10,657 nt of DNA from positions 1 through 10,657 of the forward strand of contig JAYGFR010000070.1 of assembly GCA_046581755.1 (NCBI GenBank), given 5' to 3'. A program made the position numbers and the translations under genes. Origin of the DNA: Nitrospinota bacterium. Its GTDB lineage: Bacteria; UBA8248. Shown one piece after another: positions 1 through 10,657 of this stretch. Under the pieces are notes generated by a model. The model saw only the letters and a program-made list of their open reading frames with translations. It made no database searches and was not told where the DNA came from. Position 1 is the first letter of the stretch. Every line of letters starts with the position of its first letter.

Positions 1-828
1 GCGGCTCTCGGCGCCGCGGCCCTGGGAGAGGAAGACGATTCGCTCGCCGCCGTTGGCCATATTGAACTCCCGGTCCGCGTTCAGACCCGCGTCCTGCATC
101 AGCTTTTCGATGCGGGCGCGGTCTTTTGTGTAGGCCACGAAATTCACGTTGCGGATGGGGCGCTCCAGCGTGGGAACCTGGCCGAGGATACTCCGGCAAC
201 TGAGCCGGACGGCCAGCCCGCCGATCAGATTCATCGGAATTCCGTTTTGAACCGCCCTTGAGGCCAGGGCCTCGCCGAGTTCGTGGAGCGCTTCGGTCGA
301 TTCGAGATCGCCCAGCGCGTCCGTGGTAGAGGTGAGGAGGGTATCCTCGTCGCTTTCCCCGACGATCGCCGTCTTGAGGTCGGTTAGAAGGTTGACCTGG
401 GTGTCCGATGACTTTTGGATGTCCGCCCGGACGCCCTTGAGGACGGCGAGGAATTCATCCGAGGAGGCTTCTTTCTGCTCTTCGGGCTGGAGAAAGCCGG
501 AAAAGGTTCGGTAGGTGATGCCCAGGGCCATTCCGAGGATGCTGGTGACGAAGGCGAGCTTCAGGCCATCCAGGAGTTTGGGGATGCTGCCGTCGATGTC
601 CTTGACGTCGAAATCCAGGAGCCCGATGTAGATTCCGAAAAATGTCCCTAGAACGCCGACGGTCGCGAGCGTCGCCTGTGTGTGTTCGCAGAATTCCTTG
701 GCGAGCGGTGATTTCATGCGTCTCATGAAAAAGGCCAGGAAAAAGATGGCAAAAAGTGTGGCGCAAAACACAAACGAGACTTCGTTCGAAAACATGGCGG
801 TAAAAAATCTACTTAAATCCCCAAGCAC
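1..828 (-). CDS. ZorA/MotA-TolQ-ExbB-type membrane protein fused to a nucleotidyltransferase-like domain (3' end outside window, >=276 aa)
   Basis: Not in the ORF track because there is no stop inside the window. Manual translation from GTG 828 (GAGGG RBS-like element 8 nt upstream; alternative ATG at 795): MLGDLSRFFTAMFSNEVSFVFCATLFAIFFLAFFMRRMKSPLAKEFCEHTQATLATVGVLGTFFGIYIGLLDFDVKDIDGSIPKLLDGLKLAFVTSILGMALGITYRTF...LKTAIVGESDEDTLLTS...GIPMNLIGGLAVRLSCRSILGQVPTLERPIRNVNFVAYTKDRARIEKLMQDAGLNADREFNMANGGERIVF. It has three hydrophobic helices with the GxLGTFxG and GLxxAFxTSIxG signatures of ZorA/MotA-family TM2/TM3, followed by a GGxA...R..[DxD-position] NTase-like signature. Confidence 0.85.
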   Translation of the reverse strand, partial: MLGDLSRFFTAMFSNEVSFVFCATLFAIFFLAFFMRRMKSPLAKEFCEHTQATLATVGVLGTFFGIYIGLLDFDVKDIDGSIPKLLDGLKLAFVTSILGMALGITYRTFSGFLQPEEQKEASSDEFLAVLKGVRADIQKSSDTQVNLLTDLKTAIVGESDEDTLLTSTTDALGDLESTEALHELGEALASRAVQNGIPMNLIGGLAVRLSCRSILGQVPTLERPIRNVNFVAYTKDRARIEKLMQDAGLNADREFNMANGGERIVFLSQGRGAESR

Positions 829-1047
829 GCTCTTTTCCCTCGGCTAGGATCGGAAACCCTATGCGTCGTATCGGCAGAGTGAAATCAATCTTTTAGCCTG
901 TTTCCGCCGGGAGGCGAATTGGGCGACGCTCCGGCGCAACCTAACACAATATATCTACACGAAATCGGATTCATTTTGAAGGGTGAAAATGGGGACCAAA
1001 CCCCTAATTTACTGGAGTTTCTGGAAAAATGGCGAATACGGGGACAA

Positions 1048-3444
1048 TTACGAAACCGAAGGGGCGGGAGCCTTGGGTTTGGGAGGCGCCTTGGCCTGTT
1101 GCCGGGCCTTGGCCCTGGCGGCGGCCTGTTGGGCCATTTTTTCGTAACGGAAGCGGGCCGATTTGTGGATCACCTGCTCGAAACTCTTGAAAATCCGCAC
1201 GTTCGAGGATTGCCCCGCTCTCGCCGAGGGAACATAGACCTTGATGCGGTCCAGCGGGGGCTCGGTGCTGCCCCTGGCCGGCCAAGGCAGGCGGCTCAGG
1301 CAGAACTGAACTGCATCGGCGGGTTTGATAGGCGCGGGAGCGCACTCATAGAAGACCTCTCCCCAGGAGGTGGTGTGGATGAGCTCTAGCCGTGCCACTT
1401 TATTGATATCCCCGCCCACGCCGTAATTCAGGATGGCCAGCGTGCGATCTACCTTGCTGTCGGCCAGAAGAACATCGTTTTTCAAGGCGTCCACCTTGAG
1501 GTGGGGGAAGAAGTCCGTCATGAAAAACAGAAGGTCCTGAACCTCACCCGCCGAGAGGGGCGATTCGCGGGCGACGAGGGAGGTGTTCGTGTCCTTGGTC
1601 CAGATTCCGTTGAGTACGAGCCACATGAAGGTTTCGGGCAGGTTGTAGGAGCGTTTGAGGATCTGATCGTCGTGAGTTCCCTCTTCGATGTCGCCTGTGG
1701 TGACCGTCCCCGGATAAACATTCCATATGCCCGCTTTTTTTTTGGTGGGCTTGTCGAAGGAGAGCGTGAGCCGGTCCTGCCGGAGGCTGTCCTCGAAGCT
1801 TTTGGGCAGGAAGCCGATCTTGTTTTCTTTTTTCGAGAAGAAGGTGAACAGCTTCCGGCCGAGGACGGTCATGTCGGTTTCGTTGATTTGCACCTTCGCC
1901 TCGGCCCCGGATTTTTTGAGCCGCTTGTAGGAGTCGATGATGAAGTTGTTGACCTGGCGCCCGAGGGCGACCCGCTCATCGAAGGACCACTTTTCGTAGT
2001 TGTTCAGGGAGATTATTTCATCGTTGGTCCAACCCCAGGCCTGTACGATCTGGCAGAGCATGTCTTTCAGGGGATATTTGGAGCGCGTGATATCCTGGAG
2101 GCCGGTGATGGAGGTTCCCGCCTTCAGATAGAAGCATTTGCGGAGGACATCGAGATTCTCCTCCTGGCCGGTCCGGCGGTAGTAGTCCTGGATCCGGTTG
2201 AACATCAGGTTGTAGCAGTCGATGTTCGTTCGCTCGGGGTCCTCCTCGAGGAGCACCAGTTCCGGCTGAACGGCGACGCGCCCTCGATCTTCCTTAATAT
2301 CCGGGGTTTCCGCCTCTTCTTCGTTTCCTTCTGCCTTGGCTTCTTTTTCTTCCGTTTCGCCCCGTACCTGAATTTCCGCGAGGGTTTCCTTGAGGCGGTC
2401 GCAAAGGAGCATCGGGTCCGTCGCCTTGTCCATGTAGTCCTCGATCAAGGCCATCTTCATCGCGGACTTGAACGGGCTCCCCAGAGCCTTGTTCAGTTGC
2501 CAGAGGGCGGCCCCGAAGGCCTCCTCCATCGTGACCCGCTGGGCGTTGCCCAGGTCGATATAATTTCCCCGCTCGATCTTGTGGCTCTTGATGGCGAGCA
2601 ACCGGAGGCGCTCGTACTCCTCGTCGGTCATTGTCGCGGGCATGAGCGTCCAGAACGGGAAATGACCCGCCAGAACGGTGTGGGTCCTGTAGAACTCCTC
2701 CTTGAGCAGTTTCCCCAGCGCCGAGCCGGCGCTTTCCTTGTCGGCCGAGCCGAAGTTGTTGACCTTGACGCTGTCGATGTCGGTAATGAAAAAGTGAACC
2801 TCGAAATGGCTCAGGTCCTCGGCCCACTCCTCGAGGGCCTTGAACTTTTCCTTGAAGCCGTCGAGCTGGGATTCCTTGATTTTATCCTTCTTGACGCACA
2901 CCCAGAGGTCAAAGTCGCTCTTGCTGGTCTGTGCGATGGAGGCCAGGCTGCCCATGGCCGATAGGGAGTAAATCTGGTTTTTGACGCCCACCTTCCTGAG
3001 GGATAGGGGCCGGTAGTCGGCGTCGGGAAACATTTTCTTGAGCATGTCCACCGTGTCCTTGCGGACGCGATAGTTCCAGATTCCGCCCGGCACTCGATCG
3101 CGCGGTTCGATGTAGCCAGGCAGGCCCTTGGTGTTCAGGTGAATGAGGGCGGGCAGGACGCGGAAAATGTCCCGGTCGAGGCCGTTGAGTCTCTGCTCGA
3201 TGGTTTTGAGTTTTCGGCGGTTGTAGGTTTCGTAGGCGCGAGCCCGGATGTTCATTTCCTTGAGGATCCGGTCATCCTCGAGGAGGTCTTCTTCGGCCTC
3301 CTCGGCGGCCATCTCCTCACCCGGCCCCTCGTCCAGCGAGAGATCCTCGGCGGGGGCGCCGGGGTTCTCATCCGACTCAGGAATCCCTCCGTTGGCCGGG
3401 CCTTTGTTCTTGGATTTTCGGCCGAACAGGGCTTTCAGAATCAT
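1048..3444 (-). CDS. cyaA: Class I adenylate cyclase (798 aa)
   Basis: Class I AC motifs are present in order: MGSLASIAQTSKSDFDLWVC (SDxDxW), ESAGSALGKLLKEEFYRT, GAALWQLNKALGSPFKSAMK, CFYLK, WGW, LGRKL, TSWGEV. GGGAGA RBS-like element upstream of ATG 3444; TAA at 1048-1050. Confidence 0.93.
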   Translation of the reverse strand: MILKALFGRKSKNKGPANGGIPESDENPGAPAEDLSLDEGPGEEMAAEEAEEDLLEDDRILKEMNIRARAYETYNRRKLKTIEQRLNGLDRDIFRVLPALIHLNTKGLPGYIEPRDRVPGGIWNYRVRKDTVDMLKKMFPDADYRPLSLRKVGVKNQIYSLSAMGSLASIAQTSKSDFDLWVCVKKDKIKESQLDGFKEKFKALEEWAEDLSHFEVHFFITDIDSVKVNNFGSADKESAGSALGKLLKEEFYRTHTVLAGHFPFWTLMPATMTDEEYERLRLLAIKSHKIERGNYIDLGNAQRVTMEEAFGAALWQLNKALGSPFKSAMKMALIEDYMDKATDPMLLCDRLKETLAEIQVRGETEEKEAKAEGNEEEAETPDIKEDRGRVAVQPELVLLEEDPERTNIDCYNLMFNRIQDYYRRTGQEENLDVLRKCFYLKAGTSITGLQDITRSKYPLKDMLCQIVQAWGWTNDEIISLNNYEKWSFDERVALGRQVNNFIIDSYKRLKKSGAEAKVQINETDMTVLGRKLFTFFSKKENKIGFLPKSFEDSLRQDRLTLSFDKPTKKKAGIWNVYPGTVTTGDIEEGTHDDQILKRSYNLPETFMWLVLNGIWTKDTNTSLVARESPLSAGEVQDLLFFMTDFFPHLKVDALKNDVLLADSKVDRTLAILNYGVGGDINKVARLELIHTTSWGEVFYECAPAPIKPADAVQFCLSRLPWPARGSTEPPLDRIKVYVPSARAGQSSNVRIFKSFEQVIHKSARFRYEKMAQQAAARAKARQQAKAPPKPKAPAPSVS

Positions 3445-6341: not shown

Positions 6342-6381
6342 CGCTTTCATGCGGGGCGAGAGCTCTCGAAAGGAGAAGATC

Positions 6382-7670
6382 ATGGGTAAATTTGAATTTT
6401 CCAAGGTCAGCGGGTCGCTCCACGAATGGGAGGTTTTCAACAACCTGGAGGATTCCCCCTGGCACAAAGACGCCATCTATCCCCGGTTTTCAGAGCGAGA
6501 ATACGAGCGGCGCAGGCAGGCGACCCGTGAGGCCATGAAAACGCGCGGCGTGGACTGCATCATCGCGGGCGGAAGCTCCAACCTGATGAGCATGTGGGGG
6601 GCGGTGGTCTGGCTGAGCGGGCACATGGACCACCGGAGCGTGGCCAATTACGTCGTCTTTCCGGCCGAGGGGGAGGCAACCTTGCTCTACCCCATGTCGG
6701 GACCCACATCTGGGCCGTGCGCCAGCAGGCGTCGGGGGTCGCGGATGTCCGCGCGGTGCGGAACGTGGGTGGCTACGGAAAGGGAGCGGCGGCGCGAATC
6801 AAGGAGCTCGGCCTGGAGGCCGGTACGATCGGCATCACCTCGGTCAACATGGAGGGCTGGGGGCCGGAGTATCTGCCCGTCAATTATTTTCAGGATCTGC
6901 AGGAGGCCCTCCCCGAGGCGGAGTTCGTTTTTCTCCCGGATTTTTTCCACAAGCTCTGATATCTCAAAAGCGACGAAGAGCTCGACTGCTACCGCAAGGC
7001 GGGCGAGCTGGCCGACCGGGCGATGGGGGCCCTGGTCGAGCGGGCCAAGCCGGGCGTGACCGAGCGCCAACTCGCCGCCAGCGCCAACTTCGCCATCGCC
7101 GACGGCGGGGGGTATCCCCACTTTTGCATCGTGGGGCCCACCTCGATGGCCAATCCGGCGAATATATTCGGGAACCCCAACCCCTCCGACCGCCCCCTCG
7201 AAGAGGGCGACATCATCAACAACGAGATGGCGGCGGGCTACGGGGGCGTCACCGTCCAGATCGGGAACCCGGTTTGCGTCGGAGAGCCCACCGAGGCGGC
7301 GAGGAGGCTCTGGGAGGAGGCGGTGCTGCCCAGCGCGAGGGCCATCGAAGAGGCTCTTGTGCCGGGTAAGACGCTTGAGGACGTGCGCCAGGCCGGGCGC
7401 GTCATCCTGGAAAACGGCTATACCGGCCGCCCGACCCTTTGCCACGGGATCGACATCGCCACCTCCTCTCCCCATATCCGGATGGAGGAGGTCCACGGGG
7501 CCGACTACGAGCAGACGCTCCAGGCCGGTATGGTCATCATGAGCGAGCCCAACCCCGCCACAAAGGACGGCCGCCTCGGGATGTTTTTCGGGCGCACCTA
7601 CATCATCACCGAGAACGGCAACGAGGCGGTGACGAAGTATCCCTTCGATCTTCCGGTCACCGGGAAATAG
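6382..7670 (+). pseudogene. M24 (Xaa-Pro aminopeptidase / creatinase fold) protein disrupted by a 1-nt deletion (~6697-6701) and an in-frame TGA (6957-6959)
   Basis: ATG 6382 with AGGAG SD. The first frame reads PRFSEREYERR...ATLLYPM. The protein-like reading continues in the next frame (GTHIWAVR...LPDFFHKL), hits TGA, then resumes in frame as YLKSDEELDCYRKAG...AKPGVTE...RPLEEGDII...HGID...LQAGMVIMSEPN...YIITENGNEAVTKYP, ending at TAG 7668-7670. Confidence 0.88.
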
Positions 7671-10053: not shown

Positions 10054-10418
10054 TCAGGCGGCATCGAGGGCCTGGGCGAGGTCCGCCTGGATATCGTCGA
10101 TATGCTCGATTCCGACCGAAAGCCGGACATAGCCCTGGGTCACGCCGATGGCCTCTTGCTCTTCCGCCGAAAGCTGGGAGTGGGTCGTGCTGGCGGGGTG
10201 GATGGCCAGGCTGCGCGAATCGCCGAAATTGGCGACATGGTAGAACATTTTTAGCGAATCGAAAAATCGTTTCCCGGCCTCCAGACCCTCCTTGAGCTCG
10301 AAGCCGACGAGTCCTCCGTAGCTGCCCTTCAGGTAGGTGTCCGCCCGCCGGCGGAACTCGCCGTCCATGAGGGTTGGGTGGATGACGTTCACGATTTTTG
10401 GATGATCGTTCAGAAACG
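10054..10418 (-). pseudogene. metY: 3' remnant of O-acetylhomoserine/O-acetylserine sulfhydrylase (MetY/Cys-Met metabolism PLP family), truncated by IS insertion
   Basis: FLNDHPKIVNVIHP...YGGLVGFELK...FYHVANFGDSRSLAIHPASTTHSQLSAEEQ...VRLSVGIEHIDDI..DL.QAL is the MetY C-terminal domain. The N-terminal PLP-binding part is absent, and homology ends at the IS terminus. Confidence 0.88.
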
Positions 10419-10657
10419 TGTGCATGGCGAATTCCTAATCAAGCAGCGATCGGTGTCTGAAATAGACCTCGGCAATGTGAGAGCCAGGTAGAATTGCTCA
10501 ATTCCGCCAAGGTAGGCGGTCCCTTCCCGGCGACTTCATTGGGTGTTTTTAGGTTCAGTGCCTGATGAACCCGGTGGGCATTGTAGTAATCTTGAAACTC
10601 CCCCAGCTTCTCTTCCAGATCGCGCTCGTTCCAGAAAAGAGTCTGGTCCAGGAATTC
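10419..10657 (-). mobile_element. End of an insertion sequence (IS481/IS3-superfamily DDE element), partial
   Basis: On the minus strand the transposase 3' end is followed by TTAGGAATTCGCCATGCACA. The element ends in ACA (TGT at 10419 on +), as IS481-type ends do, and metY-like sequence starts immediately after. Confidence 0.75.
10439..10657 (-). CDS. Transposase / integrase core domain (rve-type), C-terminal 72 aa
   Basis: Manual translation: EFLDQTLFWNERDLEEKLGEFQDYYNAHRVHQALNLKTPNEVAGKGPPTLAELSNSTWLSHCRGLFQTPIAA*. YN..R.H..L...TP is the conserved integrase-core C-terminal motif. Confidence 0.88.
   Translation of the reverse strand, partial: EFLDQTLFWNERDLEEKLGEFQDYYNAHRVHQALNLKTPNEVAGKGPPTLAELSNSTWLSHCRGLFQTPIAA

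Follow-up and report, generated by a model that had tools for sequence, protein, structure and literature searches.

A Zorya type II-derived ZorA2 protein fused to a predicted inactive nucleotidyltransferase domain and encoded beside a class I adenylate cyclase

Introduction

What might a ZorA-type motor subunit do when a globular domain of the nucleotidyltransferase (NTase) fold takes the place of its long cytoplasmic tail? The question arose from the initial annotation of one edge of the DNA analysed here (the window: all 10,657 nucleotides of contig JAYGFR010000070.1 of a Nitrospinota bacterium, assembly GCA_046581755.1), which proposed a Zorya-derived membrane sensor with a built-in signalling or effector domain. 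The length and flexibility of the ZorA tail, and its action on separately encoded proteins, have made it hard to see how a signal passes between membrane and cytoplasm in ZorAB; a motor joined by a short stub to one compact domain within 428 aa makes this coupling directly testable.

The fusion gene and its parts

The gene is a 276-codon open frame on the minus strand (828 to 1), with a GTG start at 828, that runs off the window edge; since the window is the whole contig (C383), it holds no stop codon for this frame. The source genome (4.2 Mb in 400 contigs) supplies the remainder: the final 20 bases of contig C36 are identical to the first 20 of the window, this 20-mer occurs nowhere else in the genome, and C36 adds 152 in-frame codons to give a fusion protein of 428 aa. 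Directly after it on C36, on the same strand, lies zorB2 (231 aa). The frame and the motifs quoted for it in the initial annotation, including T62, T95 and S96, hold in every position, and the gene could be completed as that annotation had suggested. The parts are as follows.

1048..3444, minus strand: class I adenylate cyclase, 798 aa (Pfam PF12633, E 3e-48; PF01295, E 5e-52)
829..1047, minus strand: spacer between cyclase and fusion gene, 219 nt, its last ~90 nt partly conserved among four loci
499..828, minus strand: ZorA2-type membrane module, residues 1-110 (ZorA2 profiles, PDB match, Foldseek)
Residues ~17-35, minus strand: TM1
616..672, minus strand: TM2, residues 53-71, with T62 at 643-645
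Residues 72-89, minus strand: periplasmic loop between TM2 and TM3
517..555, minus strand: TM3 motif, residues 92-104, with T95/S96 at 541-546
361..498, minus strand: remaining stub of the helical cytoplasmic tail of ZorA, residues ~111-156 (model helix and alignment)
289..360, minus strand: fusion junction, residues 157-180, a hinge common to canonical ZorA2 and then an acidic linker
1..288, minus strand: N-terminal part of the predicted pseudo-NTase domain, residues 181-276
217..222, minus strand: GG motif, residues 203-204
Residues 226-230, minus strand: RNVNF, with N227 at 148-150 and N229 at 142-144
Contig C36 of the same genome (G000): remainder of the predicted pseudo-NTase, residues 277-428 (E278, H288, K312, D322, D325), and zorB2

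Integrity, spread and selection of the fusion

The two-domain ZorA2-NTase protein is real. Its counterpart in G004 matches residues 3-276 at 79% in a single frame across the junction, and seven full-length clusters (427-430 aa, spanning 97-100% of the 428 aa at 50-100% identity) hold 58 members, fragments included, from four archives; for P0020 the predicted start lies further in, which gives 417 aa. A single contig bridges the junction (nt ~290-360) in two of the four DNA runs, X5 and X6, which belong to different studies, whereas X8 has a gap there and X21 yielded zero reads; the misassembly or one-off chimera against which the initial annotation had cautioned is thereby discounted. The sequencing runs containing fusion DNA are marine, and some cluster members are labelled by their sources as Nitrospinaceae or Nitrospinota bacteria.

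The gene is under purifying selection: across the four loci compared, no segment has a dN/dS above 0.35, and the NTase segments with unsaturated dS have values of 0.07-0.19. RNA runs contain contigs inside the fusion gene in two cases out of four and inside the cyclase in all four, which falls short of proof of transcription; these runs reveal neither strand nor level.

Among the 61 genomes searched, the window protein matched 10; G001 matches the C-terminal part of the fusion, and seven genomes of a sister genus match its N-terminus alone. A search with the G004 protein gave 142 matches among 7,998 scored candidates, a profile search (31 matches among 7,999) retrieved no additional full-length form, and one among the best 150 of 4,813 matches in 1.84 billion 50%-representatives covered both domains. 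As these wide searches added no further full-length forms, the fusion constitutes one small clade, present within its phylum in 3 of 51 genomes, all of one genus. A viral origin was set aside, none of 262 pattern matches in viral contigs being confirmed. Rfam gave 0 matches in three sources.

The motor module and its ZorB2 partner

The N-terminal part is recognized by the PADLOC ZorA2 model with E 4e-35 over residues 7-167, against 9e-11 for the best ZorA1 model. The NCBIfam ZorA2 model matches with E 1e-22 at 80 bits, below its 700-bit whole-protein cut-off, under which the canonical ZorA of G011 (190 bits) also falls. The closest PDB sequence match is the type II ZorA of 8VVI (E 2e-10), and Foldseek superposes the model on 8VVI_C with an rmsd of 1.4 A over 97 columns; both chains of this type II complex are the best solved relatives of the ZorA part and of ZorB, respectively. 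Pfam MotA_ExbB reaches 21.3 bits for the fusion, below its cut-off of 22.9, and the partner protein scores 240 bits as ZorB2 versus 25 as MotB. A flagellar MotAB, ExbBD or TolQR identity was therefore rejected, since the ZorA2 and ZorB2 profiles score best, in agreement with the initial reading of the module as ZorA-like.

The search for a downstream ZorB that the same annotation had recommended was also fruitful: the gene following the fusion matches PADLOC ZorB2 with E 2e-96, and zorB2 lies directly 3' of the fusion gene in five of five loci. All five linked ZorB proteins keep D17, GHTSS (H136) and RRVEFRVR; the equivalent Asp, His, Ser and Arg are reported as needed in Zorya (PMC11890865). 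In the alignment, the Thr and Ser that form the ion filter of Escherichia coli ZorA (PMC11946911) correspond to T62 and S96. The TM3 motif reads F-V-T-S in the fusion, F-L-T-S in the Na+-bound 8VVN, F-W-A-S in 8VVI and F-L-G-S in 8QYH, so that T95 is common to the Na+-bound Shewanella ZorA and absent from the two proton-type ZorAs. The position of T95 may, on this alignment, provide an extra polar Na+ ligand.

Homology to canonical ZorA2 ends after the hinge at residue ~167, and canonical proteins run hundreds of residues longer. In the models, which are of monomers, the TM module leads through one short helix and a linker into a globular domain, and the long tail is absent. The tail stub is a single helix of ~34 residues and can be aligned to the opening stretch of the tail in canonical ZorA2 proteins (397-658 aa). 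The junction contains a G-x-x-D-x-x-L-L-T hinge, the stretch GESDEDTLLTS finishing at residue 167, and is the most conserved segment of the protein, with 16 of 24 positions invariant across the seven full-length clusters versus 33 of 91 in the TM part; its pLDDT in the monomer model is below 50. If, as in Zorya, five ZorA subunits surround two ZorB, five predicted pseudo-NTase domains would ring the cytoplasmic face at ~50-70 residues from TM3.

Hu et al. describe long ZorA tails in all subtypes and found that each tail truncation abolished defence (PMC11946911). A search for ZorE (NF041791) gave none in the three fusion genomes, which are 96-98% complete drafts, and recovered it in both positive controls; the PADLOC ZorE model hit merely a 50-63-position HNH piece in unlinked frames of 126-131 aa. 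ZorC and ZorD models were likewise negative in the three genomes, with a weak control in which no positive control matched for ZorC, and no ZorF- or ZorG-type gene flanks the ZorA-NTase/ZorB pair in the loci read. As the tests for a long tail and for ZorE failed, the fusion system is a derivative of Zorya II and not a member of it: the Zorya descent first suggested stands for the ZorA2-ZorB2 motor, and a complete Zorya is not what was found.

A quick tree, which does not resolve the root of the fusion clade, fails to pair the fusion ZorA2 with the canonical ZorA2 of its family as sisters; it lends no support to descent from the canonical Zorya II loci in the sister genus. That genus carries canonical type II Zorya at L014-L020 (G011, G015, G025, G027, G028, G029 and G034), with ZorE2 confirmed in the loci of G011, G028 and G034. 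The zorA of G025 ends early, after ~114 codons.

The fused domain as a predicted pseudo-enzyme

The C-terminal domain (residues ~176-428; model pLDDT 93.6) has the pol-beta-like NTase fold that had been surmised for it. It is closest in structure to ANT(2'')-Ia (Z 12.8, rmsd 2.9 A, 153 aligned), MenT1 (Z 12.1, rmsd 3.6, 169 aligned) and LnuA (Z 10.2, rmsd 3.0, 134 aligned); the top nine structural rows are all NTases, and Foldseek gives E 4e-4. Pfam and NCBIfam, including PF14907, cNMP-binding and SAVED models, gave no match for it, and a PDB sequence search with the domain profile returned ANT(2'') at E 0.13 together with spurious uS3 rows. In the ESM Atlas it falls in unnamed or 'nucleotidyltransferase' clusters, with nothing for the distant member P0023. 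It belongs to a large uncharacterised family whose proteins are ~250 aa long and 30-39% identical to it along its full length; the stand-alone members score 17-38 bits for NTP_transf_5 (PF14907; cut-off 31.2, exceeded by one of them).

Positions 227, 229 and 278 carry a D-D-D triad in 103 of 104 relatives, and among 147 further representatives 141 have D-D-D and three D-D-E. The family DxD aligns (E 0.13) with D44/D46 of ANT(2'')-Ia, in which D44, D46 and D86 hold two Mg ions and the D44A and D86A variants are inactive (PMC4313920). Seven of the eight fusion proteins instead have N-N-E (N227, N229, E278), and the eighth K-D-D; all eight keep GG, H288, K312, Q314 and D325. With its metal-binding aspartates replaced, the fused domain is probably not an enzyme, which tells against the catalytic signalling or effector role originally envisaged, and these residue patterns most likely mark it as a pseudo-enzyme that retains its pocket.

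The three representatives among the 147 with a changed DxD are all regulator fusions: P0247 (GntR-FCD), P0292 (IclR/MarR-type HTH) and P0302 (Roadblock-like, by eye). A Roadblock fusion of G109 (L065:7084-8394, G109:C36) is a fourth case. D-D-D is kept in NTase fusions to AhpC, to a phosphoribosyltransferase and to one Roadblock-like domain (P0253); the DxD is hence altered in four of five regulator-fused proteins (G109, P0302, P0253, P0247, P0292), and P0253 indicates that regulator fusion does not always kill the site. Thus, the family looks like one that has been repeatedly recruited as a sensor domain. Because the DxD pair is lost in the GntR, IclR/MarR-type and Roadblock-like fusions, we infer by analogy that the domain fused to ZorA2 would be a ligand-sensing input. 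A DUF4388 gene adjoins the Roadblock-NTase gene of G109.

Stand-alone NTase genes lie beside an APC amino-acid permease and a metallophosphoesterase in four of five loci in a 401-genome sample (three by Pfam scan, one by eye). This APC permease/metallophosphoesterase/NTase set is a conserved operon with an intact NTase active site (L062, L063, L064, L066). No stand-alone family member was found in the 51 genomes of the phylum, three of which carry the fusion instead. As the phylum has the family as the fusion alone, the NTase domain was probably acquired from outside it, and the permease/phosphoesterase pathway seems absent there.

The adjacent adenylate cyclase and the conserved locus

The initial annotation overlooked the cyclase at 1048-3444; the absence of ZorE and the conserved chromosomal site lay beyond its view. 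The cyclase is an additional paralogue in this genome; it retains an intact catalytic S-D-F-D motif and, at ~800 aa, is without the last ~250 residues of the usual ~1000-aa form. Class I cyclases occur in 14 of the 51 genomes of the phylum; this short version forms a clade of its own (99/100) seen just in the genus of the fusion. In all four loci with upstream DNA it lies directly upstream of the fusion gene on the same strand; the spacer is 219-234 nt, so the two need not be one operon. Outward of the cyclase, glyoxalase, creatininase and DHH phosphoesterase genes recur in the four loci, across species (73-83% identity), and the fusion locus is a stable chromosomal neighbourhood rather than a defence island. 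In G003 (96% complete) the short cyclase, the fusion and ZorB are missing together, and their place is taken by other genes and IS remnants. As all loci with known neighbours belong to one lineage, the adjacency of cyclase and fusion counts once (one gain, one loss). G002 is uninformative, its contig stopping in a cyclase fragment. At that contig end (L045, G002:C353:2702-3172) the 5' end of the same gene lies in inverted orientation right next to the fragment, a rearrangement or an assembly artefact.

On the other flank, the gene after zorB is an opposite-strand transporter-like gene (by eye) in G000 and L023, a globin in G004 and a methyltransferase-like gene (by eye) in L024; the G001 contig ends ~490 nt past zorB, and G000 has a transposase close to zorB. 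Elsewhere in the window, an M24 peptidase-family gene is broken (6349-7670; frame change near 6700, stop at 6957-6959), and a Cys/Met PLP enzyme is a 3' fragment (10054-10657) whose 5' part is replaced by an apparent transposase remnant at the contig end; G004 has a longer Cys/Met PLP enzyme gene at the same place.

A scan of the spacer for sigma-70-like promoters gave 0. Measured against the CRP consensus, a perfect palindrome occurs in L024 (8498-8513), 134 nt upstream of the fusion gene (8 of 20,000 shuffles), and the box has two mismatches in G004 and four in both the window and L023; a conserved CRP box was rejected, as it is perfect in one spacer of four. The G000 genome has 18 cNMP-binding-domain matches. 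The long cyclase is encoded at another site, which in G000 adjoins a class II cAMP phosphodiesterase (L041:13058-16803). It is also near cheY/cheX-like genes (by eye) there; its G003 copy contains internal stops, and the G010 copy is frameshifted. Complex prediction for cyclase residues 57-775 with the pseudo-NTase scored 0.00 twice versus a mark of 0.32, a result with no bearing on binding. The idea that the fused domain stands in for the lost C-terminal extension of the cyclase was rejected for want of profile similarity (hhalign probability 0.3%).

A proposed mechanism and its alternatives

We propose, at a probability of roughly 0.4, that a Zorya II-type ZorA-ZorB pair bearing a dead NTase mediates nucleotide-gated ion flow in a signalling circuit with the cyclase. 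The pseudo-NTase domain would bind a nucleotide at its kept pocket, binding would switch ion flow through the ZorA-NTase/ZorB motor, and the adjoining class I adenylate cyclase would be part of the same circuit. The ligand might be cAMP or ATP and the output a gated ion flux, which is the most tentative element of the scheme; the ion would likely be Na+, since T95 matches the Na+-bound Shewanella ZorA. The proposal draws on the loss of the triad with the pocket kept in 8 of 8 proteins, the upstream cyclase in 4 of 4 loci, the joint absence in G003, dN/dS of 0.07-0.19 in the NTase segments and the 18 cNMP-binding-domain matches in G000. It has to contend with the facts that the nearest folds (ANT(2''), MenT1 and LnuA) take NTPs together with a sugar or tRNA and not cAMP, that the cyclase adjacency is a single event in one lineage, that the spacer is 219-234 nt long and the CRP-type box perfect in 1 of 4, that the Roadblock-like fusion P0253 retains D-D-D, and that the ZorA tail is output and not input in Zorya (PMC11946911). 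Its fullest version, in which cAMP from the dedicated class I cyclase is read by a Na+-driven, Zorya-derived 5:2 motor through five dead NTase domains, is more doubtful. If true, this motor would be the first of the MotAB/ExbBD/ZorAB family to be gated by a ligand, and the circuit would be either the first instance of Zorya put to domestic use in cell signalling or a new immune system of the cyclase-effector type.

The signal might instead run from outside in: ZorB would engage peptidoglycan under envelope squeeze or stress, ZorA would turn, and the pseudo-NTase ring would be a scaffold that switches the cyclase on or off, so that cAMP reports envelope state or ion-motive force. This is the direction taken in Zorya (PMC11946911), D17 and the peptidoglycan-binding motifs of ZorB are intact, a cyclase with its C-terminal extension gone could need a new regulator, and the Pseudomonas flagellar stator stimulates a diguanylate cyclase (10.1101/483339). 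A scaffold need not keep a pocket, yet H288, K312, Q314 and D325 persist in 8 of 8 proteins, and here too the cyclase adjacency is one event; we consider this direction rather unlikely. Two further readings appear unlikely to a somewhat greater and mutually similar degree. Pycsar and CBASS depolarise the cell through membrane effectors, and on the one reading infection would trigger the extra cyclase, whose product would open ZorA-NTase/ZorB with the same result. Both motor subunits do derive from a defence system, such systems likewise set a cyclase beside a membrane protein bearing a nucleotide-fold domain, the block is absent from G003, with IS remnants at its site, and G000 has a transposase close to zorB; but the same neighbours (DHH phosphoesterase, creatininase, glyoxalase) flank 4 of 4 loci, no defence genes were noticed nearby, there was no confirmed viral-contig match, cAMP is already widely used by the cell, and occurrence in 3 of 51 phylum genomes, one genus, differs from the scattered pattern of defence systems. 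The other reading makes the cyclase a chance neighbour and has the dead domain gate the motor on sensing another small molecule, a candidate being the substrate of the APC permease/metallophosphoesterase/NTase operon that would be the source of the domain. The permease and phosphoesterase neighbours of stand-alone relatives in 4 of 5 loci, closest folds that are small-molecule adenylyltransferases, and regulator fusions in the family that suggest sensing of a metabolite of that pathway all fit it, but the short cyclase is co-distributed with the fusion and no stand-alone family member was found in the 51 phylum genomes.

The remaining explanations deny the domain its sensory role. An active NTase, working as an effector or signal synthase turned on by motor rotation, would account for an intact fold and mostly intact pocket under low dN/dS, and the basal member retains two of the three aspartates; we regard it as distinctly improbable, as the metal-binding Asp pair is Asn and the third residue Glu in 7 of 8 proteins, 103 of 104 relatives keep all three, and D44A kills ANT(2'')-Ia (PMC4313920). 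That the gene is a decaying Zorya II remnant with an accidental fusion might be argued from the absence of ZorE and from tail truncations that abolish Zorya defence (PMC11946911); this, and an assembly chimera along with it, is largely refuted and very improbable given seven full-length clusters with 58 members in four archives, dN/dS of at most 0.35 throughout and two independent contigs bridging the junction.

Implications and comparison with known systems

These observations suggest that housekeeping signalling can take over a motor that evolved for defence, that ligands may gate a 5:2 motor from the inside, and that an uncharacterised NTase family has been turned repeatedly into a sensor domain. 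Full-text literature searches found no NTase-fused ZorA or MotA, in line with the novelty first claimed; subscription papers and supplements lie mostly outside such searches, and survey tables could list one. The accessible portions of PMC8565338, PMC13434031, PMC7159879, 10.1101/2024.07.22.604496 and 10.64898/2026.10.19.760177 contain no such fusion, and non-canonical gene arrangements were left out by Hu et al. (PMC11946911).

Zorya type II (8VVI, PMC11890865) resembles the fusion in its ZorA2 three-helix module, Thr/Ser ring and tail start, and the fusion locus shares with it the zorA-zorB order and a ZorB2 with a TM Asp and an OmpA-like domain. The fusion differs from it in a tail of ~50-70 residues followed by a globular domain, in having no ZorE and in its stable chromosomal site beside an adenylate cyclase; in the sister genus, G011 has canonical ZorA2, ZorB2 and ZorE2. 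With its own PF14907-related NTase family, the fused domain shares the GG, H, KLQI, D-x-x-D and C-terminal W-x-x-R...G-x-R-x-x-W-Y motifs, but it is without the catalytic triad and sits on a membrane motor, not beside a permease and a phosphoesterase.

Pycsar and CBASS combine a PycC-type or CD-NTase cyclase with a cNMP-binding or SAVED effector. They are similar to the present locus (for CBASS, PMC13434031) in placing a nucleotide cyclase beside a membrane protein with a candidate nucleotide-sensing domain; here the cyclase belongs instead to class I, the membrane protein is part of a motor of the 5:2 type, a dead NTase would be the sensor in place of a cNMP-binding or SAVED domain, and no defence context was seen. 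HINPO also has a catalytically dead pol-beta-like domain in a conflict-derived system, but as a ParA fusion with HEPN and ORC-CDC6 genes (10.64898/2026.10.19.760177), and the accessible text of that paper mentions neither Zorya nor ZorA nor MotA. MotC-SadC of Pseudomonas aeruginosa likewise ties a MotA-family protein to second-messenger synthesis; it joins a flagellar stator to a diguanylate cyclase by contact of membrane segments, with no fused pseudo-enzyme (10.1101/483339).
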